Positions 1,898 to 28,929 of a stretch of 64,000 nt of DNA are shown here, piece by piece. Position 1 is the first letter of the stretch, and each line of letters opens with the position of its first letter. The notes under the pieces are model-generated. The model saw only the letters and a program-made list of their open reading frames with translations, was not told where the DNA came from and did no database searches. The stretch lies in contig JAWPOE010000004.1 in NCBI GenBank assembly GCA_033345195.1, forward strand, positions 108,005 to 172,004. Reading direction: 5' to 3'. The translations under genes and the position numbers were made by a program. The DNA is from Alphaproteobacteria bacterium (GTDB taxonomy: Bacteria > Pseudomonadota > Alphaproteobacteria > Rs-D84).

Positions 1898-4800
1898 TTA
1901 TTCTACTCCCTGGCTTAGACCAGTAGGTTTGAGTAAGTCCGACACTCCCCCTACTGGACAAGTGTTTGTGCCCACCAAGCCATTGAGGTCGACAGCCATG
2001 CATGTAAGCGAGTTCGCAATGTTATTTGTAAATGCTTCGTTATACTCAATCCTTGTTTCGTGATTATCGATGTTACTCTCATTTTCGGCGATTCTACTTT
2101 CATGAGACGAGATATTACCCGCATTCGTCGAGATGGCACTCGTATTATTCGACACCTTACTATTCAGTGAACTTATCACACTGGACCCATTATTCCCCAA
2201 TACATGGTCTAGTGTTGTATAGTTACCAAATGTGCCACCTGGTCTGGTGGTCAGGGCCACGCTTAACACATTACGATTAGTATACGTGCTATCATTAATT
2301 GGCGTGGTTAATGCATAATCCAACACATTGCGATTCTTGTATCTTACAGTATCATATATATTGGTTGTCAATGCAGATTCCAGCGGTGTGAAGTTAACGT
2401 ATCTTGTATCTATCAATGCGTCGCCCAACAGCGTTGTCTTTTGACCTGTTTGCGTCAACAAATTGTCTTTCAAATTACTTTTTGTTATTGCGTTGGCCTG
2501 CAATGTTTCAAGCCCGGATGACAAGTTAGAAATATCGGTCGCTTGATTGCCCACTGTCGTACCCAGATCTCGATAGTTCCCAGAGAGTGTAGACAACCCG
2601 GTGTTGAGGGTTTCAACACTGCCCGACAAACCAGATACCTTGTTATCTACAGTGTTAACCTCTACCTTGGTTGCGTATGTTTGACCCAGGGTTGCGATTC
2701 TGTTATCAAGCGCATTTGGTGTCACAAAGATAGATCCGCCCGCATCTGCCAGTCCATCTGTCCGCACGAATATATCGCCCAGTCCTGTGACCAGTGGTGT
2801 CAGGTTGTCTTTGTTGGACAGGTATGCTACCAATCCGTCATTTGTGACATAACCACGACCATTTAAGTCAGTATCCGTGACATAGTCAGCAAACTTGCCG
2901 TCCACAGTGTTAACCGTTGCCTTGGTTGCGTATGTGTCGCCCAGGCTATTAAATCTGCTGTTTACACTATCATTGGTTGCGTATGTGTCACCTAGGCTAT
3001 TAAATCTGTTGTTTACACTATCGTTGGTTGCATAATCTTTAATTTTGTCATTTGTCACAAATATATCTTCGCCCGTATCTGTTTTCAGTCCTGCAATAGT
3101 ACTCGCCAGTCCATCACTCAGCACGAACCTGTTGTCCAGTTTTGTGATAGTGTCTGTTCTGACCAGGTCACCCGGCAGAACGTTTGGCAATGTTTTTGTT
3201 GTGACATACTCCCATTCACCATCTTTGTCCTTTGGTGCATACTTACCATCCAACCCTGCGATTATTGTGTTTACACTATCGTTGGTTGCATACCCACGAC
3301 CATTTAAATCAGCATTCGTGACATAGTCAGTAAACTTGCCGTTCACAGTGTTAACCTCTGCCTTAGTTGCGTATGTGTCACCCAGGTTATTAAATCTGTT
3401 GTTCACGCTATCATTGGTTGCATACCCACGACCATTTAAATCAGTTTTTGTAACCACGATATCTTTCAGAATGTCAGAGTCGCCCAGTCTGTCTCTAAAG
3501 AATTCTGGGAAGTTATTTTTAACCACAACTGTGTCTTTCCATCCTTTGAATTCTGAATTTATCTCATCATCCTTGGCTGCAAGGCCTGCGATTGTTGTGT
3601 CCATCTCATCCAATCTGCCTGTCAGTTCGCTGACCGTGCCAGGCAAAGTTTTGATATTTTCATCCAGCCCAGCCAATATAGTGCCTTTAAATTCATCGTC
3701 GTCCAACAGTTCGCCTGCGATAGTGTTGCTGATGTTCGCAAACTTGCCGTCCACAGTGTTAACCTCTGCCTTGGTTGCGTATGTGTCACCCAGGCTAGCA
3801 ATTCTTCTATCAAGCCCCGTTGGTGTTACAAATATATCTTCGCCAGTTTCTGTTTTCAGTCCTGCAACATCGTTTGCCAGTCCGTCTCTCAGCACGAACC
3901 TAGTGTCCAGTTCTGTGATAGTGTCTGTTCTGACCAGGTCACCCGGCAGAACGTTTGGCAATGTTTTTGTTGTGACATACTCCCATTCACCATCTTTGTC
4001 CTTTGGTGCATACTTACCATCCAACCCTGCGATTATTGTGTGCACGCTCTCGCTGGTTGCGTATTTGTTGTCCAACCCCGCGATTGTTGTATTAAGTCCG
4101 TCCGTCGTTGCTTTAAGTGCCGCAGCTGTTGCATAAACAGTTGGGATTTTGTCTAGTGTTTGCTTTATTGTTGCGATATCATTAATCTTCATCAGAGAAC
4201 TTTCCGTCACAACCTTATTTTCTGCTAACTTATTCCCGACGATGTTGGCAACAGCCACTTCATCCAATGCAATATTATTTAAATCTGATACGGTTGCAAA
4301 GTTGGAATCTGTGACATATTGCTTCGCAGCAACAAGGGTTGCGTTCTTGGCAACATCGATGTCGTTGGTGACATCCGCTGTTTTTGCATAGTCGCGCAGT
4401 ACCTGGTCACGCTCGTTAATAATTTCTGACTTTATATTTGTTGTTGCGGCACGAATCGCCGTATCTACAGCGTTATTGGTGGCGAAATTCATCTGCTTTA
4501 CTTCTGCAATTGTCGCTGCCTTTACATTTTCTATGTCTGCTGCAAAATTTTCTGCGGTCATAAAACCACGGCTTTCAATTTCATCACTTATCGTTTTAGG
4601 CAGGTCAACAACAGCTTTTTTAACAGATTCATACGATTCAAGTGATGTTTCCAGTTCTGTTATTCTGTCGTCTTTTTGCGCAATTTCCGCCTTTAATAAT
4701 TCGATTTCTTCCTTATAACTAGACAAAGATTCTTCGACTGCATCACGCATTTCGTCGATTTCGTTATACAGATTTTCAAGTTCTTTTTCTGAACGATTCG

Positions 4801-5044
4801 TAATAGGCTTCCCAATGGATACATTTGTCTGTATATTGCTAGATGCAATTGCGCTAAGACGTCCGCCTGTTGTTTTTGCTTGGTTCGTGGAAACGCTGGT
4901 GCCGCTTTTGTTCGTGGGTTTTTTGCTGGTTGCCACTGCACCGCGTACAACACTGGTTCGCAATGTTGGTGTCGTTGCACATATTTCATTTGTTATAAAT
5001 GCAAAGGCAAAAATAATACTGAATAAACGCTTAAAATGAAACAT
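1898..5044 (-). CDS. large secreted repetitive protein (signal peptide, N-terminal coiled coil, tandem fibre-like repeats)
   Basis: 1048 aa ORF; N-terminus MFHFKRLFSIIFAFAFITNEICA is signal-peptide-like; coiled-coil heptads ELENLYNEIDEMRDAVEE...; repeated modules TIIAGLDGKYAPKDKDGEWEYVTTKTLPNVLPGDLVRTDTIT and LGDTYATKAEVNTVDGKF; more than 100 bp near-identical DNA repeats (3150-3265 vs 3930-4045). Confidence 0.8.
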   Translation of the reverse strand: MFHFKRLFSIIFAFAFITNEICATTPTLRTSVVRGAVATSKKPTNKSGTSVSTNQAKTTGGRLSAIASSNIQTNVSIGKPITNRSEKELENLYNEIDEMRDAVEESLSSYKEEIELLKAEIAQKDDRITELETSLESYESVKKAVVDLPKTISDEIESRGFMTAENFAADIENVKAATIAEVKQMNFATNNAVDTAIRAATTNIKSEIINERDQVLRDYAKTADVTNDIDVAKNATLVAAKQYVTDSNFATVSDLNNIALDEVAVANIVGNKLAENKVVTESSLMKINDIATIKQTLDKIPTVYATAAALKATTDGLNTTIAGLDNKYATSESVHTIIAGLDGKYAPKDKDGEWEYVTTKTLPNVLPGDLVRTDTITELDTRFVLRDGLANDVAGLKTETGEDIFVTPTGLDRRIASLGDTYATKAEVNTVDGKFANISNTIAGELLDDDEFKGTILAGLDENIKTLPGTVSELTGRLDEMDTTIAGLAAKDDEINSEFKGWKDTVVVKNNFPEFFRDRLGDSDILKDIVVTKTDLNGRGYATNDSVNNRFNNLGDTYATKAEVNTVNGKFTDYVTNADLNGRGYATNDSVNTIIAGLDGKYAPKDKDGEWEYVTTKTLPNVLPGDLVRTDTITKLDNRFVLSDGLASTIAGLKTDTGEDIFVTNDKIKDYATNDSVNNRFNSLGDTYATNDSVNSRFNSLGDTYATKATVNTVDGKFADYVTDTDLNGRGYVTNDGLVAYLSNKDNLTPLVTGLGDIFVRTDGLADAGGSIFVTPNALDNRIATLGQTYATKVEVNTVDNKVSGLSGSVETLNTGLSTLSGNYRDLGTTVGNQATDISNLSSGLETLQANAITKSNLKDNLLTQTGQKTTLLGDALIDTRYVNFTPLESALTTNIYDTVRYKNRNVLDYALTTPINDSTYTNRNVLSVALTTRPGGTFGNYTTLDHVLGNNGSSVISSLNSKVSNNTSAISTNAGNISSHESRIAENESNIDNHETRIEYNEAFTNNIANSLTCMAVDLNGLVGTNTCPVGGVSDLLKPTGLSQGVE

Positions 5045-8744: not shown

Positions 8745-9275
8745 TTAACCGCGCATATGTGCGCGGTTAAAAAATGATAAAATATCCTGTTGGCCTGTAT
8801 TGATTAACTGGTCTGATTGTGCTTCTGGATATATGACAAATTTCATGCCGGGTGCGTTTTGCATGTTGGGGGCCCATATACTATACTTGTTACCAATAAT
8901 CAGTAATGGGCATTTTACGTCGCGCCATTTTCGCGGACGCATATGTCTAACATTTGATGCAACACAAACGCCCCCAGAATATAAGTTCGAATTATGCACC
9001 AATTCACAAACTGTTTGTTGGTTCTGACTGTCGCCCAGTACAAACAATGGTATCTGATACATTTGTTTAATCATCGATGCAATTTCCAATCGATTTTGGT
9101 CTTTATGGCATGGTATGGCAATATATCGATTGTCATTTAAAAAAGAACAAATTTTATCGCATTGATTTTGGCTGTGTGGTTCATCCTGAAATATCAGAAC
9201 AGCACCGATTGGATTTTTTATATGTCCCCATATATCAAGATTATAGTTTGTATTATTTATCGCAACAATTGTCAT
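8745..9275 (-). CDS. hypothetical protein
   Basis: ORF with start moved to the internal ATG (MTIVAINN...) preceded by AAAGGTGA RBS; no confident domain. Confidence 0.5.
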   Translation of the reverse strand: MTIVAINNTNYNLDIWGHIKNPIGAVLIFQDEPHSQNQCDKICSFLNDNRYIAIPCHKDQNRLEIASMIKQMYQIPLFVLGDSQNQQTVCELVHNSNLYSGGVCVASNVRHMRPRKWRDVKCPLLIIGNKYSIWAPNMQNAPGMKFVIYPEAQSDQLINTGQQDILSFFNRAHMRG

Positions 9276-9355
9276 TGCTTTCACCTTTTTATTCCTGTGT
9301 ATGGGAATAATGGTAAAAAACAAAAAAATAATATCACTAGGTATGTTTTCGTGGC

Positions 9356-10522
9356 CTAAATATTTCCGGCATTTTGCCCTGCAACACGACCGCTGGCCCA
9401 CGCCCATTGCAGATTAAATCCGCCCAGGTCACCTGCGACGTCCATAACTTCGCCTGCAAAAAATAGCCCGTTGCATAACACAGATTCCATTGTTTTTGAT
9501 GATATTTCACGTGTGTCAACGCCGCCACGAACGATTTCTGCGCTTGCCATATTATGCAATTTTATTTTGTTCCCTGGTATGATAATGTTTGTAATACGTG
9601 TTGCGATTTTCGCAATGTCTGCATCCTTTATATCGGCAATGTTTCGTATGTCGCCTGCCATAATCCACTTTGCTAGACGGTTGGGCAAATATTGTGTTAG
9701 TATGTTTGCAACATTCTTTTTCCCAGATGTGCGTTTTGCATCACGCAGAACCTTTTGTACATCGATATTCGGCATCAGATTTATGACAATGCCATTGTGA
9801 ATGTCACGCACACTTGCGCGGTATGCCAACGGCCCACCAATACCAAAGTGCGTGAACAATAAAGAATCGCACAGTTTATACTTTCCGATTTTAATTTCTG
9901 CATCTATTGAAATACCTGCCAGCTCAGATGGCATATTTGGAATTGATAACGCGCACAGGGCAGGGCGCACAGGTATAATTTTGTGCCCGAACGATTTTGC
10001 AATTTTATACCCGATATCAGACACCCCCAAACCGTCAAAAGATATTCCGCCTGTTGCAACAATCACAGATTTTGCACAAAATGCATTTTGATTGGTGTTT
10101 ATAATAAATATACCCGTTGTTTTTTGAACAGATTTTACATTTGTGTTGTAAAAAATATCAATTCCGCGAACATCTTTCATCAGTGCTTCTACCACAGCAC
10201 TTGCGCCATTTTCACAAAAGTATCGCCCTGGCGTCTTTTCAACCAACGACAATTTCTTGCTGTTTGCCCATTCAATAATATCGTGCGCCGAAACACGACT
10301 TAATGCACCGCGCACAAAGTTCGGATTTTCTCCAAAATATCGTGTGTGATTTGCGTCTGTATTTGTGATATTGCAACGTCCACCACCAGATACCATTACC
10401 TTGCGTGCGGGCGTTTCGCCCATTTCCAGTATCGCGACACGTTTACCACGTTCGCGTGCAACTGCGGCCGCGCTAAGGCCTGCGGCACCCGCCCCAATAA
10501 TAATAACGTCATATTGTTTCAT
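9356..10522 (-). CDS. HI0933/YhiN-family NAD(P)/FAD-dependent oxidoreductase
   Basis: N-terminal dinucleotide fold DVIIIGAGAAGLSAA...GGGRCNITN typical of the HI0933 family. Confidence 0.85.
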   Translation of the reverse strand: MKQYDVIIIGAGAAGLSAAAVARERGKRVAILEMGETPARKVMVSGGGRCNITNTDANHTRYFGENPNFVRGALSRVSAHDIIEWANSKKLSLVEKTPGRYFCENGASAVVEALMKDVRGIDIFYNTNVKSVQKTTGIFIINTNQNAFCAKSVIVATGGISFDGLGVSDIGYKIAKSFGHKIIPVRPALCALSIPNMPSELAGISIDAEIKIGKYKLCDSLLFTHFGIGGPLAYRASVRDIHNGIVINLMPNIDVQKVLRDAKRTSGKKNVANILTQYLPNRLAKWIMAGDIRNIADIKDADIAKIATRITNIIIPGNKIKLHNMASAEIVRGGVDTREISSKTMESVLCNGLFFAGEVMDVAGDLGGFNLQWAWASGRVAGQNAGNI

Positions 10523-10557: not shown

Positions 10558-10591
10558 ATAAAAATCCCCCATTGCATGGGGGATTTTTTGT
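10558..10591 (-). terminator. rho-independent terminator of the giant surface protein gene (member of the AAATCCCC..GGGGATTT hairpin family)
   Basis: aaaatcccccattgcatgggggatttttt immediately downstream of the stop at 10593. Confidence 0.6.
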
Positions 10592-10592
10592 T

Positions 10593-13500
10593 TTACCATG
10601 TTGTATAACCTGGTGCACATGTATGTTCACACTTCTTTCGTGACGCATTCCACTTTCTGGAACCCGTTTCATCCGAATATGTATCACAGATTAAACGACA
10701 TTCGTTATCTTCCAGATTGTACAATTCTCCCTGGTACATACAGGACGCGATCTCGCAACCACGAACATAACTACTTGCGGCCAATTCGCCATTCGCGCTA
10801 TACATGTTGTTGCAGCGACCGCACTGTTTCCAACCTTCGTTCGTCAGACTGCTGTCATTTGTATATCCTGGATTACATTCGGTTGCAATACATTCGCCCC
10901 ATGTGTTTGTATTATGGTTCCATTCGCGCACGCCAATACCATTTTCCAGTTCACAGACTTGTTCGTCAACCTGGCATGCATTTGAACCAAGATGATATCC
11001 GTCTTCGCAGTCTGTAATTATACATTCGCTAAACGCATTCTTATTAGAATCCCACTTTTGTGTTGCGGCAATTGCATTTGGCGCAGAACATTCAATCACA
11101 TTGGATTCACACGCTTGGCCATTCGGATGATACCCAGAAACACACGATTCAACGACACAGTTTCCACCTTGCTTATAAGATATTGCATTTTCACGCGCAC
11201 ATGGTGTGCATATGCCATCGATTAATTCAAAGTTGTAATTGCATGATGTTTCAATACATACATTGTCGATTATGTCACATGGATTGCCGGTTGGTGAACG
11301 TCCTTCAAATTCGCATTCGAATGGATAGAATACGGTATCCTCGACTGGTACGGCTGTACCATTTGTGACGGCATATTCCACACATTCTTTATAACACGCA
11401 TCGACAGACGACGAACCTGGAACAGACAGCGTATACAACCCACCTGTTAATTCTGAACATGTCTTTGGCATATTGTCAGGCGTATCTGTTGAGCATACAC
11501 TACCTGCTGGACATATCACGCACTGCGCGTTACTCAGATAATACCCTGTATCACACGCAAATGTTTGACATGTATCTGGAATATTTGCGCCATAATAGTC
11601 GCGTCCGACCATTTGTGTTGCATTTTCTGCCAGCCCACAGTCTGCATAGCAGTAATTAACATCTGTCGTTCCCGCATCTGCATACGTGTACGCACCATTT
11701 GTCAGTTCAGAACAACTCATAGGTTTATTGCCTGGTACATTGGTTGAGCATACGCTGCCCTCTGGACATATTATGCATTGACCATCGCTCAGATAATACC
11801 CCGCATCGCACGCTGTTATCTGACATGTGTCTTCGATACTGTCGCCGTAATAGTTGCGGCCTGACACCTGTGTTGCGTTTTCACCCAAATCGCAGTCTGC
11901 ATAGCAGTACGCAACATCTGTCGTTCCAGCCTCTGCATACGTGTACGCACCACTTGTCAGCTCTGAACATGTTTTAGGATCTTCTTGTTGGTTCTCTGTA
12001 TCGCATACACTGCCTGCTGGGCAAATTGTACACTGACCATCATTTACATAGAATCCGCTAGTACATTTTGCTATCTGACATGTATCTGGAATATTTGCGC
12101 CATAATAGTTGCGTCCGACCATTTGTGTTGCATTTTCTGCCAGCCCACAGTCTGCATAGCAGTAATTAACATCTGTCGTTCCCGCATCTGCATACGTGTA
12201 CGCACCATTTGTCAGTTCAGAACATGTCTTTTGTTCCCCGCCAAAGCACACATTATCTGCTGGGCAACCGATACAAGTATTTCCAACTTGTGAATACTTT
12301 TCATCACATTCTGTCACAATACAGTTTGTACAATTCAACGCGTATGCCTCAACTGCTTCATCATAATTACACGTGTTTTCTCCTTTCCCATTGACAATAT
12401 TGCACGACAGATTTTGTTTATAACACTCCGCTGCGCGTTTTGCCTTTGTTGTATCTGTTTTCCCATCGTCTGGACATTGGTACAGCAATGTCGAAGAACC
12501 TGGTTTTGCAGACAATGGTTGCTCCAATTCATTGGCAAAGAATGTTTGCTCCGGACTATAATTATTCGCGCCAACAGGTACACAGTCACGAACACCATCT
12601 TCGTCAACATACTTTCCGTCATCATAATAGCCTGCATTACATGCCACAATTACAGGCATTGCGCATTGATAGCTATAGCCTTTATTTATGTCCGTCTCAC
12701 TTGCGTCGTCAATATGATAGCAACTCAATCTCTGTGCGCCGTTTGTTGTTTCGAACCATCTATCCCCCAGATAACACTGTGTCACCTTTTCTGACGTTGT
12801 GTTTTGTGTTGTCACACCATCAACATCACCCAGATTTGGACATGCCACACGTCCCAAACTTGGTGCAGGACTATAATATCCGTATCCAACTTCTGTACAA
12901 TCTATGTCTTTATTGCTTTCCAACCAATGTCCTGCGATACAAGACATAACCTGTATGTTATCACAATTCACAGAATATGAGTTTGTCGCGTCATCATAAT
13001 AACATGTTTGTTTGCCGCTTGCACGATTTGTATCGGATACATACTGTACATTTGTTGCATAACAGTCCGCCTTTTCATCAGAACCTTTCGCAGATGATAT
13101 AGATACTTCTGTCGGTCTACCATTTTGATTTATTACTTCAACATATGTACCATTTAATGCCGCGCAGTATTCGATACCTTTATCAATTTTGTCGCCGTTT
13201 TGGTGGGTCGTAACACCCCCACAGTATGCTCCATTTGGACATACAACACACGCGTCTTCAAAACCATCATAATACATACCTTTATCGCATTTGATGATTG
13301 GATTTTCACCCCATACCGCAGTTAATGTAGCATTCTCACTAAATATAGTATAGTTCGAGCTAAGACTGCCGTCTGGATTAATGACAACTTCGTCATTCAA
13401 AGCCTTGTATCCACCGAATGAATAGTTTTGTTTTTTAGGTACTGTGATTGATTCAATCCTATCTGTTGCGTCTGCTTGACCGTTCGTACCATTGGTCAGT

Positions 13501-16500
13501 TTTAAATACCAGCCATCGTTATATTTCAAATATATTGTGTCGACTGCCTGTGTCACATCTTCTGCGCCCTTATCAAGTGTGATTGTTAATACTTTCGGGT
13601 AACATACATCGCCCAACGCCGTATACCCTGTGTTGCATTTTGTCTCATATTCACACGCAGGTATCGTGGAATCGTCATAATACACATACTGTTGTTTTGG
13701 TACACGTACGCCATTTTCAATACTGATATTACTGCATGTATTATAGCATTGTATTGGTGACGATGCGTTGTCCACACTGGTTGTTGTGGTCTCGTTCGCG
13801 CCACTTAAATTTGCGCACAACATTTTTTCAATACTGCCCTCAATACTATATGCGCCAATTCCGACCAACGCACATGTTTGTGAATTTTCCGCTTCGCGCC
13901 ATCTGCCGGCGACACAACTTGTAATTTTGATGTTACAACTTGCGTTATATGCATCAGACCCGTAATAACAGGTTTGATCCCCTGCGCCGGTTTTATCGCT
14001 CAATTGGGTGTCTGAACGTACAGCATAACAGTCAGTTATATCATCACTGCCACTTGTCGAGCTGACTTCGCCATTTAATGTATCTGTTGGACATACGCGC
14101 ATACAGCCCAGCGTCGTATCTGTTTCTGTCCCCGCATCAACCCAGCCACCCGGACAATAGTAGCCAGCTTCACATGTGTTGTTATTCACATCAAAACCCG
14201 CACTACATTCTGTCTGCAAGCGTTCCCATTCGGCTGTTAATACGCCATCGTTATTTGTGAACAGTGCAACCTCATCTGTGTTTGGTTTTCCATTCTCGTC
14301 AATGACTTTTATATCTCCTTTGAAATAACCCTTGAAAGCATAATTTGTTCTTTGTGGCGTTTCTATTGCCGATAAAACATTGCTGCCCCCTTCGTCAGAA
14401 TACCAACCGACCGTATATTTTTGATAAATTGTCTCTGTTCCACCAGAACCACCATTGGTATTCAGTGTTACTTTCCACACCCCTGGATCACATGATGCAA
14501 TAGTCGTCGCAGTATTTGGTGCACCATATAACGTACGCGAATAACCATATTCAATATCGCCAGTTGTACGTGCTATATAGCCTGTATCACATGTATATGT
14601 AAATGAACAGAATGTTGTAGGTGTACATATTGTATTTGGATACCAACGGAATCCATTACGTGCTGTTAAATTTTCTGTACAGGTTGCATGTTCTGGACAA
14701 TGGTTAACATATTCGCCAGTTAATTTGTCATCTGCCCCCAGTACATAGTCGTGATATAAGTTACATGTAGGCGTACATCCCGCGCCATAGCATGCGCTTG
14801 CCCCCGCGCTCATGTTTGCATTAATGGACGAAGACCAGCATGTTTCTGTGCCACCACTCGCATTCGGACACAGCCCCTCTAACGAAGAGCACTTTTCAGA
14901 ACAGTCATTTACATCGCTGGTTAAATACATGCCAGAAGAGCACTTTGTATACGTATTATATAGAACTGGGCAAGTATTATCATCCCCTCCCTCGGTGTTG
15001 CCGGTCGGGTACAGTGTAATAGTCGTCTTTGCTGTTGTGTCGTACGCGCAACTTAAGAAGTTCTTATTAGGACATATTTTGCAATATCTTTCCCCCTCGC
15101 ACGGGTCGTAACATGCTGTTTCTTCTGTTTTATAACATTCATCTGCTGATGTTGCGCCTGCGTCAGATTCAGTATAACTGCCGTCGCCAACAGTTTGGCA
15201 ACTGTAAATGCCTTGGTCGTTATTGGAATCAATTTCATAGACGTCTTCGTCGGTTCCTGGGCAGTAATTCCCTGGGGTACATGTTTCACATTTCAAAGTC
15301 CCACGTGGCAGGTATTCACCCACGTCGCAAGCATCTATCGTCTCTGTATTTTTTATCCAGCCTGCTGTTAATGTCGTATCTTCAGCAATGTCCCAGTCTT
15401 GTGCAGAAGAATTGTCTGCATTAATATACAGTGTTTCATTATACCACCACCCCGTAAATACATATCCTGTGCGTACCGGTGTTATGCCCGGATTACTCAT
15501 TGGCTGACCATATGTCACAGTCATTGGGTCTGGTGTTCCGACCCCGTCGCCCGGGTCAAACGTCACAGTATATCTGTTTGCATTACAACTGGGGGTTGCG
15601 GTGTTTGCATTGCTGACGGTATAACCCGTATTGCATGACGCGGTATACGTTGCCGTGCCATTGCTGTTAATGGTCAGAGCGCATATACCATTCTCAGGTT
15701 TGACGCAATCCATGGCCCAGCCCGCGTACAAGGTGGTGTCTCGGGTGGCTGATGTTGGTTTTGGCAATTCTGCCGATGGTCCAATGACAGGTATACTTTC
15801 ACCACCACTGGCGGTCAGGTCAGCCTGTTGTTTAGAATAATATCCACGGAACTTATAGTCTGTGCGTGCAGGAACCGGTGCTACCTTCAATGACTGGGTT
15901 CCATCACTAATATCGTACCAACCTGTATCATATCTTTCATAAATTTTCGTCTCGTCATCTGTGCCATCATTGTGCATTAATGTAATTATATAGATGCTTG
16001 GCGCGCATGCTTTTGCAATTGTAACGCCAAAGCCCTGATAGTTGTCATAACAATCATAACGTGCATACAACTTCGCCGTGTTGTCCAAGGCACTCATACA
16101 TGCAGATGACGACGAAAGAGCGCCGTTAGAATCAATACACTGTATGCCAACACTGGTGTGCGCGGTGTATGCCCCAACATAACGTGCATTTGTCTTTGAT
16201 GGTTTTGTAACGCTTGTAATTTGGGTGGAACAATCGCTGTCACTATAATAATAGGATGAATCCGTCTTTTTATAAATCTCTGTCGTGCCACCTGTGCCAC
16301 CATTGGTGGTATTGTCTATGGTAATTTTGGTACATGCCGACGTCCAGCATGCATGCAGCGCTGCATTTTCTGTATACGACGTATTGGTGAAATCGGTGGT
16401 TATATAACCATTGGCATCGATACGCTGGATCCCAGAGCAAGCTGTACTGGTATAATATCCACCAAATTTATAACCTGTTTTGGCTGGGGTTGTAATTGGA

Positions 16501-17873
16501 TTTGCAGTCGTTGACATCTTTTTTGTCAAAGATGTATCCAGATAAACACCATCGGAATACACAAAATATACTGTACCAGGTGCGGTCCCATTGTCATTAA
16601 CCAGCCCAATCATACGTATCGGGCGACGCCCCGCATAATATGTAACAGTTGCCGCCGTTGACGTAATAGATGGCTTATGTGTAAGCGTCACGGAACTATT
16701 ATCTGGCAGGGTTTCACTTGTATACCAGCCATCAAAAATCTTGTATCCTGACGCCGGTGTTAATGTCGCCGGACTGGGCATTGGACATTCCTTGTTATAT
16801 TTACAACACTGGGTTATAGTGTTGGCACTGGAACTGGGGGTCCATGTCTTTGGATTTCCACATCCATCTGGCCACGTCAATGTTGCACCTGTTGCACCAT
16901 TTGCATTTAATGTCACGGTACGATAACAATCTGTCTGCGCCCCTGCACCTGCCGCCGACGTCCAATTCGTTGGACACTGGTTTTGTGTCACACTGGTCGA
17001 CCCAGCCGGACAGTAATAACCCGCAGTACATGCCGACCATACGACATACAGTTCAACAGTACCGCCATTGGCTGTGGTCAGATTTGTAACAGATTCTTTA
17101 TCGGTGTACTCCACCTCCTCGTTTGTTGCCGTTGGCGATGTTGCCCAACCCTGGAAAACATAGCCCGTGCGTTTAAATGTATTTGCGCTTAGTTCCTGTG
17201 CCACCCCATATGTAAATGACTGACGTTTTGTGGCGGCACTTGTCGAATTGTCATTTGAATGGAACAAAACTGTGTATGTATTTGCGGTACATTTATTATT
17301 ATATACATGATATCCGGTGCCGCATATAATCCATCTTGCATAAATGGTTTTGTCACTTGTTACTGTCCATGTCTCACCTGTATTGGCGCCATCGCTATCA
17401 AACAACTGTGTCCCACCGATAAGATTGGTGGTATATATTCCTTTAAATTCGGCGCTTGATGATGTTGCAGATATATTCCCCGATAATTCGGTTGTACATG
17501 TTTCGTCTGTGTACCATGTATTGTCCCCAGTTTTCTTGTACAGTACATTTCGTAAAACCGTAGAGTTCGCAGTGCTGGATGAAATTGTTATCTTGTTACA
17601 GTTTTGAACAGGATGCGCAATCCCAGCATTACATGTCCAACCGTCTAAACATTTTATACATGAGTTTCCAGTATGTGGTCGTACACCACCATACTTCAAA
17701 CTTTCAATCAGTTCTTCTTGTGTTGTGCCCCAGTCAGCAAGATAATACCCCGCACTACACGACGTGTATGTTTTTAATGTCGGACACGTATATCCCGCAG
17801 CAAGCACATTTGTGCCCAAAAATACGGTTGCAAAAATTGTTAAAATTCCCAGAAATCTGCGGATTTTCCCCAT
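10593..17873 (-). CDS. giant cysteine-rich surface protein with Listeria-Bacteroides (InlB B-repeat-like) repeats
   Basis: about 2426 aa from the ATG preceded by AGAGAGGAAG RBS (the track ORF extends to 18017); signal peptide MGKIRRFLGILTIFATVFLGTNVLAA; many TGYxFxGW(Y) motifs; Cys-rich modules CxxGYYxxDGQCxxCPxGSxC; 3 x 86-aa perfect tandem repeats. Confidence 0.85.
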   Translation of the reverse strand: MGKIRRFLGILTIFATVFLGTNVLAAGYTCPTLKTYTSCSAGYYLADWGTTQEELIESLKYGGVRPHTGNSCIKCLDGWTCNAGIAHPVQNCNKITISSSTANSTVLRNVLYKKTGDNTWYTDETCTTELSGNISATSSSAEFKGIYTTNLIGGTQLFDSDGANTGETWTVTSDKTIYARWIICGTGYHVYNNKCTANTYTVLFHSNDNSTSAATKRQSFTYGVAQELSANTFKRTGYVFQGWATSPTATNEEVEYTDKESVTNLTTANGGTVELYVVWSACTAGYYCPAGSTSVTQNQCPTNWTSAAGAGAQTDCYRTVTLNANGATGATLTWPDGCGNPKTWTPSSSANTITQCCKYNKECPMPSPATLTPASGYKIFDGWYTSETLPDNSSVTLTHKPSITSTAATVTYYAGRRPIRMIGLVNDNGTAPGTVYFVYSDGVYLDTSLTKKMSTTANPITTPAKTGYKFGGYYTSTACSGIQRIDANGYITTDFTNTSYTENAALHACWTSACTKITIDNTTNGGTGGTTEIYKKTDSSYYYSDSDCSTQITSVTKPSKTNARYVGAYTAHTSVGIQCIDSNGALSSSSACMSALDNTAKLYARYDCYDNYQGFGVTIAKACAPSIYIITLMHNDGTDDETKIYERYDTGWYDISDGTQSLKVAPVPARTDYKFRGYYSKQQADLTASGGESIPVIGPSAELPKPTSATRDTTLYAGWAMDCVKPENGICALTINSNGTATYTASCNTGYTVSNANTATPSCNANRYTVTFDPGDGVGTPDPMTVTYGQPMSNPGITPVRTGYVFTGWWYNETLYINADNSSAQDWDIAEDTTLTAGWIKNTETIDACDVGEYLPRGTLKCETCTPGNYCPGTDEDVYEIDSNNDQGIYSCQTVGDGSYTESDAGATSADECYKTEETACYDPCEGERYCKICPNKNFLSCAYDTTAKTTITLYPTGNTEGGDDNTCPVLYNTYTKCSSGMYLTSDVNDCSEKCSSLEGLCPNASGGTETCWSSSINANMSAGASACYGAGCTPTCNLYHDYVLGADDKLTGEYVNHCPEHATCTENLTARNGFRWYPNTICTPTTFCSFTYTCDTGYIARTTGDIEYGYSRTLYGAPNTATTIASCDPGVWKVTLNTNGGSGGTETIYQKYTVGWYSDEGGSNVLSAIETPQRTNYAFKGYFKGDIKVIDENGKPNTDEVALFTNNDGVLTAEWERLQTECSAGFDVNNNTCEAGYYCPGGWVDAGTETDTTLGCMRVCPTDTLNGEVSSTSGSDDITDCYAVRSDTQLSDKTGAGDQTCYYGSDAYNASCNIKITSCVAGRWREAENSQTCALVGIGAYSIEGSIEKMLCANLSGANETTTTSVDNASSPIQCYNTCSNISIENGVRVPKQQYVYYDDSTIPACEYETKCNTGYTALGDVCYPKVLTITLDKGAEDVTQAVDTIYLKYNDGWYLKLTNGTNGQADATDRIESITVPKKQNYSFGGYKALNDEVVINPDGSLSSNYTIFSENATLTAVWGENPIIKCDKGMYYDGFEDACVVCPNGAYCGGVTTHQNGDKIDKGIEYCAALNGTYVEVINQNGRPTEVSISSAKGSDEKADCYATNVQYVSDTNRASGKQTCYYDDATNSYSVNCDNIQVMSCIAGHWLESNKDIDCTEVGYGYYSPAPSLGRVACPNLGDVDGVTTQNTTSEKVTQCYLGDRWFETTNGAQRLSCYHIDDASETDINKGYSYQCAMPVIVACNAGYYDDGKYVDEDGVRDCVPVGANNYSPEQTFFANELEQPLSAKPGSSTLLYQCPDDGKTDTTKAKRAAECYKQNLSCNIVNGKGENTCNYDEAVEAYALNCTNCIVTECDEKYSQVGNTCIGCPADNVCFGGEQKTCSELTNGAYTYADAGTTDVNYCYADCGLAENATQMVGRNYYGANIPDTCQIAKCTSGFYVNDGQCTICPAGSVCDTENQQEDPKTCSELTSGAYTYAEAGTTDVAYCYADCDLGENATQVSGRNYYGDSIEDTCQITACDAGYYLSDGQCIICPEGSVCSTNVPGNKPMSCSELTNGAYTYADAGTTDVNYCYADCGLAENATQMVGRDYYGANIPDTCQTFACDTGYYLSNAQCVICPAGSVCSTDTPDNMPKTCSELTGGLYTLSVPGSSSVDACYKECVEYAVTNGTAVPVEDTVFYPFECEFEGRSPTGNPCDIIDNVCIETSCNYNFELIDGICTPCARENAISYKQGGNCVVESCVSGYHPNGQACESNVIECSAPNAIAATQKWDSNKNAFSECIITDCEDGYHLGSNACQVDEQVCELENGIGVREWNHNTNTWGECIATECNPGYTNDSSLTNEGWKQCGRCNNMYSANGELAASSYVRGCEIASCMYQGELYNLEDNECRLICDTYSDETGSRKWNASRKKCEHTCAPGYTTW
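11459..12232. repeat. intragenic tandem repeat, 3 copies of about 258 bp, near-perfect
   Basis: identical stretches longer than 140 bp at about 11575-11720 and 12075-12225; the track shows identical antisense peptides in 11565..11747 and 11985..12293. Confidence 0.8.
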
Positions 17874-18033
17874 GTTCTTCCTCTCTTTTATACTGTATGG
17901 TAGAAAATTTGTAGCCATATGCGCAAGGGAAAACGTGTATATACAATGAAAATATTTTTTATTTGATAAAAAATTAAGAAATAGAAATTTTTGGCTTGCA
18001 TGATTTTTATAATACATATATAATGACCGCCGT

Positions 18034-18110
18034 GGGTTAGTAGCTCAGTTGGTTAGAGCGGAGCGCTCATAACGCTTTGGTCGTGGGTTCAAGTCCTACC
18101 TAACCCACCA
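18034..18110 (+). tRNA. tRNA-Met (anticodon CAT; could be the tRNA-Ile2 lysidine type)
   Basis: gggttag...ctaaccc acceptor stem, anticodon loop ctCATaa, T-loop ggttcaagtcc, 3-prime CCA encoded; 77 nt. Confidence 0.9.
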
Positions 18111-24758: not shown

Positions 24759-24766
24759 TTAAAAAC

Positions 24767-24795
24767 TTGCAATTTCCAGTCCAAAAGACTATAAT
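24767..24795 (+). promoter_or_regulatory. sigma70-type promoter of ssrA (TTGCAA-17 nt-TATAAT)
   Basis: perfect -35/-10 hexamers with 17-nt spacer, about 7 nt upstream of the predicted 5-prime end of the tmRNA acceptor piece. Confidence 0.6.
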
Positions 24796-24801
24796 TATAT
24801 G

Positions 24802-25150
24802 GCTGCATTGCAGTGATGATTCTGAAACCGTTGTGAAATAGTCATTATGGACTGGGGGGCGGTACCCCACAGCTCCACCATTTCTTGATACGATTATTGG
24901 TCGTATTTGGGAATGGGGCTGACATAGATTCGACAGATGATGAAAGACAAATTGGCTGAATCCGACATGGCGTCGTAAAAAGCCGACTAAAAACTGAATG
25001 GCGATAGAATCGCTGCGAACGACAATGTTCGCCTTGCAATGGCTGCCTAAGAATGGCGTTGAATATGGTTGGCGATTGTTGACTGTATTCGTTTAAGCGA
25101 TTGCGGTGTTCGCCGGGTACATGGCACCAGAAACCCGGCATTTAATTTTG
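24802..25150 (+). ncRNA. ssrA: two-piece (circularly permuted) tmRNA gene: acceptor piece about 24802-24880 ending in CCA, intervening segment, coding piece about 24915-25150
   Basis: acceptor piece ends ...ggggggcggtaccccaCAGCTCCACCA (tRNA-Ala-like 3-prime strand plus CCA); coding piece starts GGGGCTGACATAGATTCGACAG (cf. E. coli GGGGCUGAUUCUGGAUUCGACGGG); tag ORF 25015-25050 GCG AAC GAC AAT GTT CGC CTT GCA ATG GCT GCC TAA encodes ANDNVRLAMAA; terminal hairpin gccgggt..acccggc plus T-run; this permuted gene order is established for alphaproteobacteria. Confidence 0.8.
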
Positions 25151-26489: not shown

Positions 26490-26526
26490 TACGCCAAAAA
26501 AATCCCCATTTTGGGGATTTTTTATT
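26490..26526. terminator. bidirectional terminator between convergent genes (AAATCCCC..GGGGATTT family)
   Basis: aaaaaaatccccattttggggatttttt. Confidence 0.55.
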
Positions 26527-27763
26527 TGCTTATACAATTCGAAAATTGCTGTGCAACTGACGATGTCTCAGATGGTGTCATTTGTGCAACCTGCACAATA
26601 AAACATCTGGCACCGTCGCGAACAATAAATACTTTTGTGCCTTTGACATATGCCTGTTGCATGTTATCGACCTGCGCCGTTGTAAAGAACGGGTTTTGCG
26701 TTAATGCTGTATTTGTTAATGCTGCTTGAACCGCCTGTGATGCGCGATCATATGTATAAATCTGTTCGCTCATTGATTCTACTTCCATCCAGGTTGGCCA
26801 AAACTGATACGGATTTTCTGCTTTTTTTTGTTCGCCTGGCCCAATCGCGACACCCGTTGCCAGTGCTGCAATCGTTTGCAGATTGCTTGGTTGTGATGCG
26901 CCAGATGATTTTGTTGCCATGTTTAATTGCAGATTATCACCGCACGCCAAATTCATACGATTAACGTAGTCTGCCAAGACAGAATTGACCGCCATTTCCC
27001 AATTTTCACCCTTGCTGTTCATCTCCAGGCTAACAATCTTTTCCGCCCAGCCCCAAACACTTGCGCCTGTATTCCCTGCGTTGGCAAAGCGCGTCACCAT
27101 TTCTGCACTGCCCCCCGGAACACCTGCACCGCAATAGTCGGTTAATTGTGTCCTCAACATGCTGTCTGTTTCGTTTCCATATGCCATTGCTGCCGAATGA
27201 CATGCCATCGCTGCCTCTAATTCCTGGCGACGTTGCAGGCACAAATCAGAATGCTGTTTTGACAACTGATTTGCCATATTTGCCATTGACAGATACGCCA
27301 TCAGTTCTTGTTGAACATATGATGGGCAAAGGCGTGCAGCAGTATTCATGCCATTTTTTCCATTCATGGTATTTACGCCGTACTGTGGTAATAAAATACT
27401 TGTGTCGCGTTGCAGACACAGCAATGCATAATTATATAGTTCGCTTTCTGTTGCATACTTGCATTTTGATTCGCGTACACCTGGCACAACCGTTGTGTCG
27501 CCACAGTATTCGGTCAGGCATGCAAAAATACGTTCACGACATGCCGTGTCAACGTCTGGCTGATTAATCATAAAATAATTATTCCGTTGATTTGTTTTAT
27601 ATGCGTTTGCCAAACCCGCATTTCCGCGTAATTGCGTTGTTGTATTTGAACCAACATAGTTCTTGGTACCATGAACAGTCACACCTGCCGGCGAAACAGC
27701 ATTTGCAGAATTTGCCAGCAAACATGCACCAATTATGCCGAAAATACAGAAAAAGTTCTTCAT
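26522..27763 (-). CDS. secreted protein, hypothetical
   Basis: start moved to MKNFFCIFGIIGACLLANSANA (signal peptide) preceded by GAGAGGGA RBS; about 413 aa; no known domain. Confidence 0.65.
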   Translation of the reverse strand: MKNFFCIFGIIGACLLANSANAVSPAGVTVHGTKNYVGSNTTTQLRGNAGLANAYKTNQRNNYFMINQPDVDTACRERIFACLTEYCGDTTVVPGVRESKCKYATESELYNYALLCLQRDTSILLPQYGVNTMNGKNGMNTAARLCPSYVQQELMAYLSMANMANQLSKQHSDLCLQRRQELEAAMACHSAAMAYGNETDSMLRTQLTDYCGAGVPGGSAEMVTRFANAGNTGASVWGWAEKIVSLEMNSKGENWEMAVNSVLADYVNRMNLACGDNLQLNMATKSSGASQPSNLQTIAALATGVAIGPGEQKKAENPYQFWPTWMEVESMSEQIYTYDRASQAVQAALTNTALTQNPFFTTAQVDNMQQAYVKGTKVFIVRDGARCFIVQVAQMTPSETSSVAQQFSNCISK

Positions 27764-27857
27764 AATAATCCCTCTCGTTGAAACGATTTTAACATAAATG
27801 CATAAAAAAGGCAAACATTCATTTGATTTAATAAAATAAAATGTTATCATCACGAAC

Positions 27858-28929
27858 ATGATTATTGTTTCGGACGTTTTATCGCAAATCTCAGACGACA
27901 TTTCTGCCGTCAGGGGGTTTCTTTGACCCAGAAAAATTGCAAAAACAGATTGATGAATTGAACACTCTGGTAAACGCCCCCGATTTGTGGAATAATCCAG
28001 ACAACGCGCGCGCGTTATTGCAAAAGAAGTCCGGTCTGGAAAAGACGTTGAACGACTTATTATCTATGGAATCGGAACTTTTGGGCTTGCGCGAATTGTA
28101 TGAAATGGATTCGAATGACCAAGAAATAATTTCCGCAATTGAAAATTTGGCAGATGTTGCCCATCGTGCAAAGTTTATAACGTTGTTCCGCGAACCTGCG
28201 GATAATGATGGTGCATTCTTGTTTATTCAGGCGGGTGCCGGCGGGACCGAGGCACAAGATTGGGCGCAAATGCTGTCGCGTATGTATTCGCGCTGGGCAG
28301 AACGCCATGGCTTTAGTTGCGAGGTTATAGAAGAACACGAAGGCGACACTGCTGGTATTAAAAACATAACATATCGCATATCAGGCGCGCGTGCGTACGG
28401 TTGGTTAAAAAACGAAATCGGCGTTCATCGTCTGGTTCGTATATCGCCATTTAATGCCAATGGCAAGCGTCAGACCAGTTTCGCGTCCGTCGACGTATGG
28501 CCCGATATCGATGATACAATTGAAATTGAAATTAATGACAAGGATTTACGTATTGATACATATCGGGCATCTGGTGCCGGCGGTCAACATGTTAACAAGA
28601 CAGACAGCGCGGTTCGTATCACGCACATCCCAACAAATACTGTTGTTACATGTCAGAACGAGCGCAGCCAAATTCAAAATCGCGAAATGGCGATGAAAAT
28701 GTTGCGCAGTAAATTGTATGAACTGGAAATGCAAAAGCGTGCCGCCGAAGAAGATGCCGCCAAGGCTGCGCAAAAGAAAATAGAGTGGGGCAGTCAAATC
28801 AGAAATTATGTCCTGTATCCGTATCAGTTGGTCAAAGATGTACGTACCGGCGTTGAAAAAACGGATTCGGATGCTGTTTTAGATGGTGATTTAGATGATT
28901 TTATGTTGGCGCTATTGCAACGCGGATAA
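27858..28929 (+). CDS. prfB: peptide chain release factor 2 with programmed +1 ribosomal frameshift at 27921-27926
   Basis: frame-0 MIIVSDVLSQISDDISAVRGFL then CTT TGA C slippery site preceded by AGGGGG; the +1 frame continues DPEKLQKQIDEL... with RF2 motifs SPF and GGQHVNKTDSAVR. Confidence 0.9.

Follow-up and report, generated by a model that had tools for sequence, protein, structure and literature searches.

Proteins with Flg_new domains (PF09479 and TIGR02543) are viewed as adhesin-like, are enriched in host-associated gut microbes, and have been proposed to act in attachment (PMC9723798). The giant gene analyzed here lies in a 64,000-nucleotide stretch of DNA (the whole of which is called the window below), and its product has in common with these proteins a PF09479 match, multiple tandem copies of the domain, predicted export, and an association with the gut of a host. 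The giant protein differs from them in consisting mostly of Cys-rich modules that have no family assignment, and its conserved N-terminal module and ~330-amino-acid (aa) C-terminal domain were found in no described Flg_new protein. Listeria InlB, which is about four times smaller, has the B-repeat in common with the giant protein by sequence, a small beta-rich domain type. Identity as an internalin was rejected. The leucine-rich repeat (LRR) domain, the inter-repeat region, the GW modules or LPXTG motif that serve as anchor, and a C-terminal hydrophobic segment are missing, and no LRR or internalin family was found among the Pfam or NCBIfam matches at an E value of ≤1.

Cysteine modules comparable to those of the giant protein are known from TNFR, ephrin-receptor, and ELAPOR1-type domains (PF07699 and PF23091) and from laminin/EGF-like domains, with which it shares the pattern CxxGYY...C..CPxGxxC and 4- to 8-Cys beta-hairpin modules. 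In contrast to the eukaryotic modules, those of the giant protein are bacterial, form very long arrays, and are combined with Flg_new domains. The Giardia VSPs and the ciliate immobilization antigens have periodic Cys-rich modules, a variable body, a conserved terminus, multigene families, and a gut or anaerobic setting. The likeness of these coats to the giant protein is an analogy only. The C-terminal transmembrane helix and CRGKA tail of the VSPs are missing here, and the Pfam matches at an E value of ≤1 include no VSP family. Unlike these protist coats, the giant protein gives no evidence of copy switching, and its host is a bacterium.

The type I secretion system (T1SS) RTX adhesins (LapA, SiiE, and BapA) and the type V adhesins resemble the giant protein in size, in rod-of-beads repeats, in conserved termini, and in a variable repeat-rich body with varying repeat number, as in the family described below. 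However, T1SS substrates have no Sec signal, whereas the giant protein has a conserved, predicted one at its N terminus, and neither RTX/HemolysinCabind nor Ig-like BIg repeats were found in it. Type V features are likewise missing among its Pfam matches, with no barrel translocator and no TPS domain, and its C-terminal 326 aa are modeled as disulfide-type beta-hairpin modules rather than a barrel (pLDDT, 90). The very high Cys content is also unusual for proteins that are threaded unfolded across the outer membrane. A T9SS sorting domain (e.g., PF18962) was not found in the giant protein, and the host is an alphaproteobacterium, not a member of the Bacteroidota. The Cys pattern of the "CysRRep" repeat (Cx6-9Cx5-7Cx8-11Cx7-8CC; 10.64898/2026.06.07.730663) is not that of the giant protein, and this repeat is not applicable.

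Gene structure and domain layout

The coding sequence, which comprises 2,426 sense codons and a stop, is part of a minus-strand open reading frame (ORF) that runs unbroken from 10593 to 18017 in the ORF list. Databases already list its product, generically named: MDW2958556.1 (NCBI, "InlB B-repeat-containing protein") matches the giant protein with 100% identity and 100% coverage (P0001) and has the same start. Its features, in window coordinates, are as follows.

17879 to 17885, minus strand: Shine-Dalgarno-like GAGAGGA, located 6 nt ahead of the ATG at 17873
10593 to 17873, minus strand: complete coding sequence (ORF list, translation, match to P0001)
17799 to 17873, minus strand: predicted Sec-type signal peptide, aa 1 to 25, MGKIRRFLGILTIFATVFLGTNVLA/A (hydrophobicity, family conservation)
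17559 to 17798, minus strand: N-terminal Cys module, aa 26 to 105, AGYTCPTLKTYTSCSAGYYL... (family-conserved motif, BLAST HSPs)
15294 to 17558, minus strand: ~6 to 7 divergent Flg_new-like (InlB B-repeat) domains, aa 106 to 860 (internal BLAST, per-segment Pfam)
14517 to 15293, minus strand: Cys-rich region I, aa 861 to 1119 (~10 Cys per 100 aa)
13284 to 14528, minus strand: super-module, aa 1116 to 1530 (AlphaFold2 model, alignment A2)
12309 to 13283, minus strand: Cys-rich region III, aa 1531 to 1855 (internal similarity)
11301 to 12308, minus strand: array of four 85-aa (255-bp), 8-Cys modules, aa 1856 to 2191 (HMM, repeat finders)
12076 to 12224, minus strand: near-identical tract, unit 1 copy (148/149 bases shared with 11566 to 11714)
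11566 to 11714, minus strand: near-identical tract, unit 3 copy (148/149 bases shared with 12076 to 12224)
10596 to 11300, minus strand: core of the C-terminal Cys-rich domain, aa 2192 to 2426 (alignment A1, AlphaFold2)
10560 to 10588, no strand assigned: terminator-like G+C-rich hairpin flanked on each side by T-runs (terminator scan)

The start and signal peptide proposed in the initial annotation are supported by the GAGAGGA upstream of the ATG, by the NCBI start, and by the N terminus that is conserved throughout the family. Its estimate that one gene takes up more than 11% of the window also holds (7,281 nt, 11.4%). A start at 18017, which would add 48 residues with neither a signal peptide nor a ribosome-binding site, was rejected. 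The signal peptide is the sole strongly hydrophobic 19-aa window of the giant protein; it has no lipobox, and hydrophobicity windows found no transmembrane segment beyond it. The hairpin, a consensus match only, starts 5 nt past the stop, at the boundary with the co-directional downstream gene. A promoter scan returned sites no commoner than in shuffled sequence.

This layout, in which an N-terminal Cys module is followed by ~8 divergent Flg_new domains set among Cys-rich stretches, by the 85-aa array, and by the C-terminal domain, is that of a modular, almost all-beta protein with predicted Sec export. Thr, Ser, Asn, and Gly are abundant in the protein, and its mass calculated from 2,426 aa is ~250 kDa. 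The CxxGYY...C..CPxGSxC modules that had been described are present, but the cysteines number 148 (6.1%) rather than "hundreds"; they could form ~74 disulfides or, alternatively, bind metal.

Roughly one quarter to one third of the giant protein is Flg_new-like. PF09479 matches the protein as a whole with 57.5 bits (E = 1.4e-15; gathering score, 27 bits), and TIGR02543 lies slightly under its cutoff (20.4 versus 20.95 bits). The "many" repeats of this type claimed at first reduce to two copies that pass the Pfam cutoff, at 35.3 and 43.6 bits (aa ~200 to 266, window 17076 to 17276, and aa 768 to 837, window 15363 to 15572), and about six divergent ones. Of the latter, one scores 22 bits, and five more give E values of 0.018 to 0.47 or nothing and are recognized only through internal BLAST or predicted fold. 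AlphaFold2 folds the sub-threshold copies at aa ~1130 to 1215 and 1425 to 1520 into compact beta domains (pLDDT, ~90), and a Foldseek search with the 415-aa multidomain model that covers two Flg_new-like copies gave no significant match. Within aa 106 to 860, the domains are separated by short Cys-rich linkers.

The Cys-rich stretches are modeled as small beta-hairpin modules. BLAST HSPs at the N terminus span aa 1 to 45 up to aa 1 to 90, and the N-terminal Cys module has no Pfam match; neither has region I at an E value of ≤1, nor region III. The super-module (mean pLDDT, 88.3, from a shallow alignment) is predicted to be nearly all beta and to consist of a Flg_new-like domain, a ~200-aa Cys-rich rod, and a second Flg_new-like domain, and alignment A2 contains 20 invariant Cys. 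Region III partly repeats the Cys-rich stretch at aa ~1220 to 1420 of the super-module, and internal similarity pairs aa 1270 to 1350 with 1592 to 1675 and aa 1598 to 1645 with 1811 to 1856.

Likeness to the eukaryotic Cys-rich domains lies below conventional thresholds in both sequence and structure searches. Pfam searches with 20 family C termini and Cys-rich segments returned sub-threshold matches to cEGF/EGF, TNFR_ELAPOR1, Ephrin_rec_like, Sushi, ADAM_CR, and TIL, the best E value among such families being ~0.004. Ephrin_rec_like was found in 1 of the 20 C termini (E = 0.0045) and TNFR_ELAPOR1 in 2 (E = 0.02), and the latter also in the repeat array (E = 0.47). PF07699 has no match in the full-length giant protein at an E value of ≤1; the distant homologs P0099, P0109, and P0120 carry precomputed matches to it. 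Foldseek comparison of the super-module with the PDB recurrently returned Elapor1, the Cys-rich domains of EphA2 and EphA4, and DcR3, DR6, and TNFR2, all sub-threshold (best E = 4e-3; TM below 0.35), with E values of ≥0.015 and target-normalized TM of ≤0.34 for the EphA2 CRD, Elapor1, DcR3, and DR6.

The array had been described as three perfect tandem repeats of 258 bp (86 aa). The period is in fact 255 bp (85 aa). Tandem Repeats Finder reports 11488 to 12224 (period, 255; 2.9 copies; 75% matches) and a second repeat finder reports three copies, while a repeat HMM recognizes four units at aa 1856 to 2191, the last one already diverged, so that the three repeats sit within a four-unit array. 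Nor are they perfect, with pairwise DNA identities of 73%, 81%, and 71% and a longest exact repeat of 114 bp. Identity over more than 140 bp, attributed to all three, survives as near-identity of units 1 and 3 only, in a 149-bp tract with one mismatch, the longest near-exact tract. These two units lie 510 bp apart and are only 55% identical outside the tract. The 149-bp patch is a genuine trace of gene conversion or duplication in the recent past. The suggestion of recent expansion or conversion is thus upheld for this patch, but most units are old (55 to 75% identical).

Copy number varies over evolutionary time, as had been anticipated, with 2 to 6 units among homologs and 2 in the closest relative (L001/P0002) against 4 in the giant gene. 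Rapid variation within a species, which had also been implied, was not seen in three independent full-length assemblies of a sister species (a small sample), where the ortholog is 2,574 aa long throughout and differs by 2 to 4 substitutions. Two metagenome scans (an exact 36-mer and a degenerate C-terminal codon pattern) found no match to same-species variants.

The source is a metagenome-assembled genome (MAG) and the exact protein is a singleton cluster, which would fit an assembly artefact of the array or of the whole gene, or a decaying pseudogene; we regard this explanation as highly improbable. The array units differ by 19 to 29%, and typical reads would span the longest exact repeat, which makes it unlikely that the array was collapsed or falsely expanded. 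The 7.3-kb frame is unbroken and is accompanied by a ribosome-binding site, a signal peptide, and a hairpin of terminator type. No Cys column of the family domain has been lost, and >100 independent MAGs encode this same architecture, conserved termini included. The giant gene is real and encodes a Cys-rich repeat protein that is predicted to be exported.

Family, genomic locus, and rate of evolution

The host is a Candidatus Enterousia-like gut alphaproteobacterium of the order Rs-D84, and the window contains an alpha-type permuted tmRNA. Members of Enterousia/Rs-D84 have genomes of ~0.75 to 1.0 Mb, have been proposed to be partner dependent, and are without the tricarboxylic acid (TCA) cycle, respiration, and standard uptake transporters (PMC12306168). 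The giant Cys-rich family of this lineage was defined operationally in the present analysis by its two ends and, for its positional ortholog group, by locus. The query has both ends: A/GY[TS]C[PD]xxKxYTSCxxGYY after the signal peptide and a C-terminal domain of ~330 aa with ~30 conserved Cys and a terminal GYxxW. Family members are 2,000 to 4,400 aa long, occupy multiple loci, and are restricted to the Enterousia/Rs-D84 lineage. Of the related loci, 169 in number, nearly all come from Ca. Enterousia or from gut MAGs of uncultured alphaproteobacteria, and the signal peptide plus AGYTCP...YTSCxxGYY module is present in 33 of the 120 listed homologs, query included.

The core of the C-terminal domain is built of ~44-aa four-Cys modules and ends the protein with ...CAPGYTTW. 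Alignment A1 and the structural model, both of which take in aa 2101 to 2426, show 29 invariant Cys and an invariant terminal Trp, with all query columns intact, and all-beta modules with a pLDDT of 90.4 from a shallow alignment. The query scores 606 bits against the domain profile, which matches 728, 444, and 273 representative proteins at E values of ≤1e-3, ≤1e-10, and ≤1e-30, respectively, and the match reaches the C terminus of the protein in nearly all of the 150 matches listed. The profile found nothing among PDB sequences at an E value of ≤1, and Foldseek found no match for the model in the PDB or the BFVD viral structures at an E value of ≤1e-3, although global superposition of elongated multimodule rods makes for a poor test of this kind. 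The ~330-aa domain is undescribed, with no Pfam, PDB, or viral-structure match. A phage origin is unsupported, as tblastn returned 0 matches in 50,697 phage records.

In the window, the giant gene has a PIF1-like helicase/tRNA-Met on one side and an HI0933-like flavoprotein gene on the other, and an HI0933-like gene is directly downstream in 34 of 70 assessable related loci. It is the positional ortholog of the giant gene that occupies this PIF1-like helicase/tRNA-Met to HI0933-like locus in many Enterousia/Rs-D84 genomes. Six loci hold a tandem second family gene; the window contains no second member and no further copy of the C-terminal domain. Across 79 family loci, the neighbors are housekeeping genes (HI0933-like, DnaE-like, and SecA-like by N-terminal sequence) or a tandem paralog, and no conserved transporter or partner gene adjoins the family members.

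The giant gene is far more diverged than its flanks in both close-relative comparisons. In the comparison with L001, flanking proteins are 93 to 98.6% identical, whereas the identity of the giant protein is 61 to 64% over the N-terminal and middle parts and 86 to 93% at the C terminus, and ~2.3 kb of the gene interior has no nucleotide similarity. The dS values are 0.68 to 1.0 for the giant gene versus 0.23 to 0.39 for the flanks, and dN/dS is 0.11 to 0.41 versus 0.03 to 0.10 in four of five flanking genes (0.25 for the unannotated neighbor at 8745 to 9407), staying below 1 wherever measured. The alignments show conserved gene ends and an interior that is replaced or highly diverged, even between genomes with flanks that are 88 to 91% identical. 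The giant gene is the fast-evolving signature giant gene of Candidatus Enterousia. Its faster evolution relative to the flanks fits an exposed interaction protein.

Candidate role at the cell surface

From these sequence features, we infer a surface location and an adhesin function, and the product is probably an adhesin-like surface fiber. The best reading, to which we give slightly better than even confidence, is a Sec-exported, rod-like surface adhesin that displays its variable interior outward. Disulfides (or metal) would stiffen an elongated, bead-on-a-rod fiber. The C-terminal domain, and perhaps also the N-terminal module, would be the invariant cell-proximal or assembly part, while the variable Flg_new/Cys-rich interior would face outward. 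The interior may attach to gut surfaces or to the supposed partner cell of this reduced bacterium, and it may diversify through recombination, gain and loss of units, and gene conversion.

Several observations weigh on this reading. For anchoring or outer membrane translocation, the giant protein has no autotransporter barrel, TPS domain, T9SS CTD, LPXTG motif, lipobox, or C-terminal transmembrane helix, none of the neighbors in the window suggests a dedicated transporter, and the search for a domain that binds a ligand of known specificity found none in the protein. A heavily disulfide-bonded protein is a poor type V secretion substrate, which counts against this reading, and so do the ~74 disulfides that the cysteines would form in an anaerobe reported to have no respiratory chain, with which they sit oddly (PMC12306168). 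The dN/dS values below 1, which fall short of demonstrating positive selection, and the sister-species orthologs, equal in length and nearly identical, also weigh against it.

The missing translocation and anchoring modules, with a Sec signal peptide as the only export feature, would also be expected of a periplasmic or released soluble protein, for example, a metal or thiol buffer or a secreted decoy. Cys-rich proteins may bind metals in place of forming disulfides, and 148 Cys in an anaerobe reported without a respiratory chain (PMC12306168) would suit such a role. Nevertheless, a periplasmic buffer would hardly need to be a rod of 2,426 aa that carries ~8 Flg_new domains and varies so strongly in its interior, exposed proteins are the ones that typically evolve fast and as mosaics while keeping their ends, and the Cys columns fall in confident beta-hairpin models like those of extracellular Cys-rich domains. 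We consider a soluble protein of this kind quite improbable.

An exposed protein need not be a specific adhesin. It might instead be a structural component of the envelope or coat, an S-layer- or capsule-like fiber matrix that protects the cell against host immunity, phage, or bile. The gene is a core syntenic one across many genomes of the genus, its conserved termini are what assembling or anchoring parts would require, its Thr/Ser/Asn/Gly richness suits a hydrophilic and possibly glycosylated coat, and hypervariable interiors are typical also of coat proteins exposed to phage and immunity. However, the Pfam and NCBIfam scans returned neither an S-layer domain (SLH or RsaA-like) nor one for self-assembly, and discussions of Flg_new domains usually treat them as adhesin-like (PMC9723798); a coat without specific adhesion is a doubtful, though less remote, alternative. 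Shielding and adhesion are compatible roles, and the present data do not separate them.

The adhesin reading could be carried further, tentatively and with a good deal less confidence, to an undescribed adhesin class in which TNFR/ephrin-type modules are combined with beta-grasp domains, export follows a route outside types I, V, and IX, the C-terminal domain holds the fiber on the cell, the interior diversifies cassette by cassette, and the fiber tethers the bacterium to an obligate partner or to epithelium. Such a class, if real, would be a bacterial counterpart of the variable Cys-rich coats of protists, on each copy of which ~1% of a tiny genome would be spent.

The locus is biologically meaningful although the "perfect" repeats were wrong. 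The family defines a ~330-aa C-terminal Cys-rich domain that has no counterpart in Pfam or the PDB and is confidently predicted by AlphaFold. It also poses the questions of how ~74 cysteine pairs would be oxidized in an anaerobe without a respiratory chain and how a disulfide-rich 250-kDa rod would cross or attach to the envelope. The uncultured members of Rs-D84/Enterousia, with genomes smaller than 1 Mb and a proposed dependence on a partner (PMC12306168), are widespread in human and livestock guts. Because the giant family is lineage specific, occupies a fixed locus in most genomes and often has extra copies, and encodes proteins that are very large for so small a genome, much more diverged than the flanking genes, and predicted to be exported, it is the obvious candidate for contact with that partner or with the host.

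An intact gene for a modular, cysteine-rich protein

The minus strand from 10593 to 18017 is a single open reading frame without interruption. Translation from the ATG at 17873, which has GAGAGGA 6 nt 5' of the start codon, yields a 2,426-aa giant protein beginning with MGKIRRFLGILTIFATVFLGTNVLA|AGYTCP, and the MGKIRRFLGILTIFATVFLGTNVLA stretch is its sole strongly hydrophobic segment. Residue for residue, this is the protein NCBI MDW2958556.1 ([quoted passage not shown] contig of 277,557 bp), and the gene is already deposited under this generic automated name. These observations uphold the start proposed in the initial annotation, and the measured share of the window (11.4%) agrees with its figure of more than 11%. 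The gene is real, intact, and Sec-targeted; that it is an assembly artefact is unlikely.

Features of the window
10560-10588: G+C-rich hairpin with T-runs on both flanks, 5 nt past the stop codon
10593-17873, minus strand: giant gene
18034-18110, strand opposite the giant gene: tRNA-Met, just upstream
24763-25142, plus strand: two-piece (permuted) alphaproteobacterial tmRNA (RF01849, 137 bits; ARAGORN tag peptide AANDNVRLAMAA)

The protein is rich in Thr, Gly, Ala, Ser, Asn, Tyr, Asp, and Cys, with 148 cysteines (6.1%) where hundreds had been claimed. Its architecture is modular, all-beta, and Cys-rich.

Domain layout of the giant protein
aa 1-25: signal peptide
aa 26 to ~105: conserved Cys module
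up to aa ~860: ~6-7 Flg_new-like domains with short Cys linkers between them
aa 860-1120: Cys-rich block I, after the Flg_new-like region
after block I: Flg_new-like domain, Cys-rich block II (aa 1215-1420), second Flg_new-like domain
aa 1520-1860: Cys-rich block III
aa 1856-2191: four 85-aa, 8-Cys units
protein end: C-terminal domain of ~44-aa four-Cys modules, ending ...CAPGYTTW

Flg_new (PF09479) is the sole Pfam match (E=1.4e-15), and NCBIfam TIGR02543 scores slightly below its cut-off. When candidate copies were each scanned singly against Pfam, two exceeded the cut-off (aa ~200-266, 35.3 bits; aa 768-837, 43.6 bits), one further candidate reached 22 bits, and five gave E=0.018-0.47 or no match, their kinship to the other copies being seen by internal BLAST. 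A segment scan found zero Pfam matches in Cys-rich blocks I to III, and those of the 85-aa array were limited to sub-threshold TIL and TNFR_ELAPOR1.

Repeat units and divergence of the interior

Tandem Repeats Finder reported a single array (11488-12224; period 255 bp, 2.9 copies, 75% matches), and a gap-free repeat finder returned 3 copies with 76-84% identity to the reference. The three perfect 258-bp repeats described initially are therefore not present: pairwise DNA identities between units are 73%, 81%, and 71%, and no exact repeat exceeds 114 bp. Units 1 and 3, 510 bp apart, share a 149-bp tract with 1 mismatch (11566-11714 vs 12076-12224) and are only 55% identical beyond it, the pattern of a recent, conversion-like patch instead of three perfect copies.

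An HMM made from the units finds the four in the giant protein and 2 to 6 per homologue. At L001, the locus of the closest relative (a roe-deer MAG), one unit region aligns with three places in the window, so the giant gene has two more units than L001; repeat number shifts over evolutionary time. The sister species' ortholog is 2,574 aa long in 3 of 3 independent assemblies, with 2-4 substitutions, which counts against rapid variation.

Flanking regions are 88-91% identical to L001 in DNA and 93-98.6% in protein (81% for one unannotated neighbour), while identity in the giant protein is 61% for the N-terminal part, 64% for the middle, and 86-93% for the C-terminal part. Nucleotide similarity to L001 is not detectable at 16920-14645, and nearly the entire interior of the gene cannot be aligned with L012, a further related locus. 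By Nei-Gojobori estimates against L001, dS is 0.23-0.39 and dN/dS 0.03-0.10 in the flanking genes, apart from the unannotated neighbour at 8745-9407 with dN/dS of 0.25. Where the giant gene can be aligned, dS is 0.68-1.0, up to 1.7, and dN/dS climbs from 0.11 in the C-terminal part to 0.41 in the N-terminal part. Since dS and dN are both raised, the pattern suggests old or imported alleles, with recombination between the conserved ends, rather than relaxed constraint alone.

Family, locus, and host lineage

The window (G+C ~42%) encodes the permuted tmRNA, which helped to assign it to the Alphaproteobacteria, together with rubrerythrin, Lon, Obg, sigma-70, and more housekeeping genes. When species-representative genomes were scanned with the C-terminal profile, 169 related loci emerged. 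Almost all of them belong to "Candidatus Enterousia" or to MAGs of uncultured Alphaproteobacteria from the guts of roe deer, sheep, yak, buffalo, chickens, and humans; a few differently labelled bins probably result from mis-binning. Enterousia, of the order Rs-D84, has a genome size of 0.75-1.0 Mb, lacks the TCA cycle, respiratory chain, and standard uptake transporters, and has been proposed to depend on a partner (PMC12306168).

Full-length homologues span 2,000-4,100 aa. Their best-conserved part is in every case the final ~330-410 residues, always C-terminal, with 50-62% identity for most and 86-93% for the closest. The C-terminal domain profile matched 728 representative proteins at E<=1e-3, 444 at E<=1e-10, and 273 at E<=1e-30; in nearly all of the 150 listed, which are as long as 4,444 aa, the match extends to the C-terminal end. 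The N-terminus is also kept (MGKxRxFLG...NxxAA|GYTCPxxKxYTSCxxGYY). The family is lineage-restricted, with conserved ends and a hypervariable interior.

An HI0933-like flavoprotein gene directly follows the family gene in 34 of 70 assessable loci, as in the window, and PIF1/TsaB/Lon lie upstream where the contig extends far enough, which makes the window gene a positional ortholog at a core locus. The remaining loci have other neighbours or a tandem second family gene, and several MAGs carry two loci each; the relatives make up a small multigene family. In six Enterousia loci (L067, L072, L078, L009, L033, and L022) the HI0933-like gene lies 5-9.5 kb past the family gene, and at least in L078 this gap contains another family gene that shares the AGYTCP N-terminus, so some species have a tandem duplication of the locus. 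Neither transporter nor secretion genes consistently adjoin family genes in the window or the related loci.

Two genes downstream of the giant gene, a 220-aa ORF without Pfam match (8745-9407, minus strand) overlaps the HI0933-like gene (9356-10522) by ~50 nt and has 81% aa identity to L001 (dN/dS 0.25), compared with 93-99% for housekeeping neighbours. Elsewhere in the window, a 1,275-aa ORF (33718-37545, plus strand) without Pfam match begins much like a signal peptide (MTKKILAAIIAFFVCNAHA) and has a Cys-rich N-terminal part whose CNPGFEFQRGAC motif is reminiscent of the giant protein's CxxGY modules, a hydrophobic segment in the middle, and degenerate tandem "TDAGRAANNA/TSRATN" repeats; it is not matched by the giant protein's C-terminal-domain HMM and is possibly a second exported or membrane protein specific to the lineage. 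On the minus strand, an ORF of at most 459 aa (26522-27901), also without Pfam match, has a signal peptide from an internal start (MKNFFCIFGIIGACLLANSANA) and scattered Cys in its mature part, and is another uncharacterised, predicted exported protein. Adjacent overlapping paralogous ORFs of ~275 aa each (28989-29816 and 29777-30601, plus strand) resemble APH/choline kinases weakly (E=4e-4 and 7e-5) and contain HxDxxxxN motifs; with a third choline-kinase-like ORF at 55611-56564, they could be a sign that small-molecule kinases were duplicated although the genome is reduced. Two large minus-strand ORFs (1898-5044, 1,048 aa; 47189-49135, 648 aa) have weak Pfam matches only: DUF2730 (26.2 bits, cut-off 24.9) and, below cut-off, coiled-coil-type CENP-F_leu_zip and ATG17-like.

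Predicted structure and possible role

AlphaFold2 models from shallow family alignments reached mean pLDDT of 90.4 for the C-terminal 326 aa and 88.3 for aa 1116-1530. Both consist nearly throughout of short beta-strands and hairpins, and pTM values of 0.54-0.59 would be in keeping with elongated rods of many modules. The corresponding alignments contain 29 and 20 invariant Cys columns. Foldseek found no match at E<=1e-3 for either model in PDB, nor for the C-terminal model in BFVD, and a profile search of PDB sequences found none. The sub-threshold Foldseek list of the middle model has a consistent theme (Elapor1, EphA2/EphA4 Cys-rich domains, DcR3/DR6/TNFR2, mastigoneme, and Treponema sialidase), with which the sub-threshold Pfam matches cEGF, TNFR_ELAPOR1, Ephrin_rec_like, and Sushi agree. 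Because these matches are sub-threshold and PDB sequences give none, the likeness to TNFR/ephrin-receptor Cys-rich domains is held as resemblance, not membership.

A giant, Flg_new-containing, adhesin-like repeat protein of a gut microbe is a known kind. Three features appear undescribed in the libraries and literature searched: the Enterousia-specific family, whose N-terminal module is conserved; the Cys-rich C-terminal domain of ~330 aa with Trp as its last residue; and long TNFR/ephrin-like Cys-module arrays in a reduced-genome alphaproteobacterium.

The 148 cysteines amount to 74 potential disulfides. The lineage lives in an anoxic habitat and reportedly has no respiratory chain (PMC12306168), leaving no obvious oxidant for ~74 disulfides, and no DsbA/DsbB-like gene lies within the window; the cysteines may alternatively bind metal. 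Neither an anchor nor a module for outer-membrane translocation was detected in the giant protein, which is a weak point of an adhesin-like role; a periplasmic or soluble protein is one rival reading, and a coat or shield protein another. The adhesin-like role is suggested by the link of Flg_new proteins to gut colonisation (PMC9723798), the apparent partner dependence of the organism (PMC12306168), and an evolutionary pattern like that of an exposed protein. As such an adhesin, the giant protein would form a stiff extracellular fibre, with attachment or assembly via the conserved C-terminal domain, perhaps also the N-terminal module, and its variable interior would contact host or partner surfaces.
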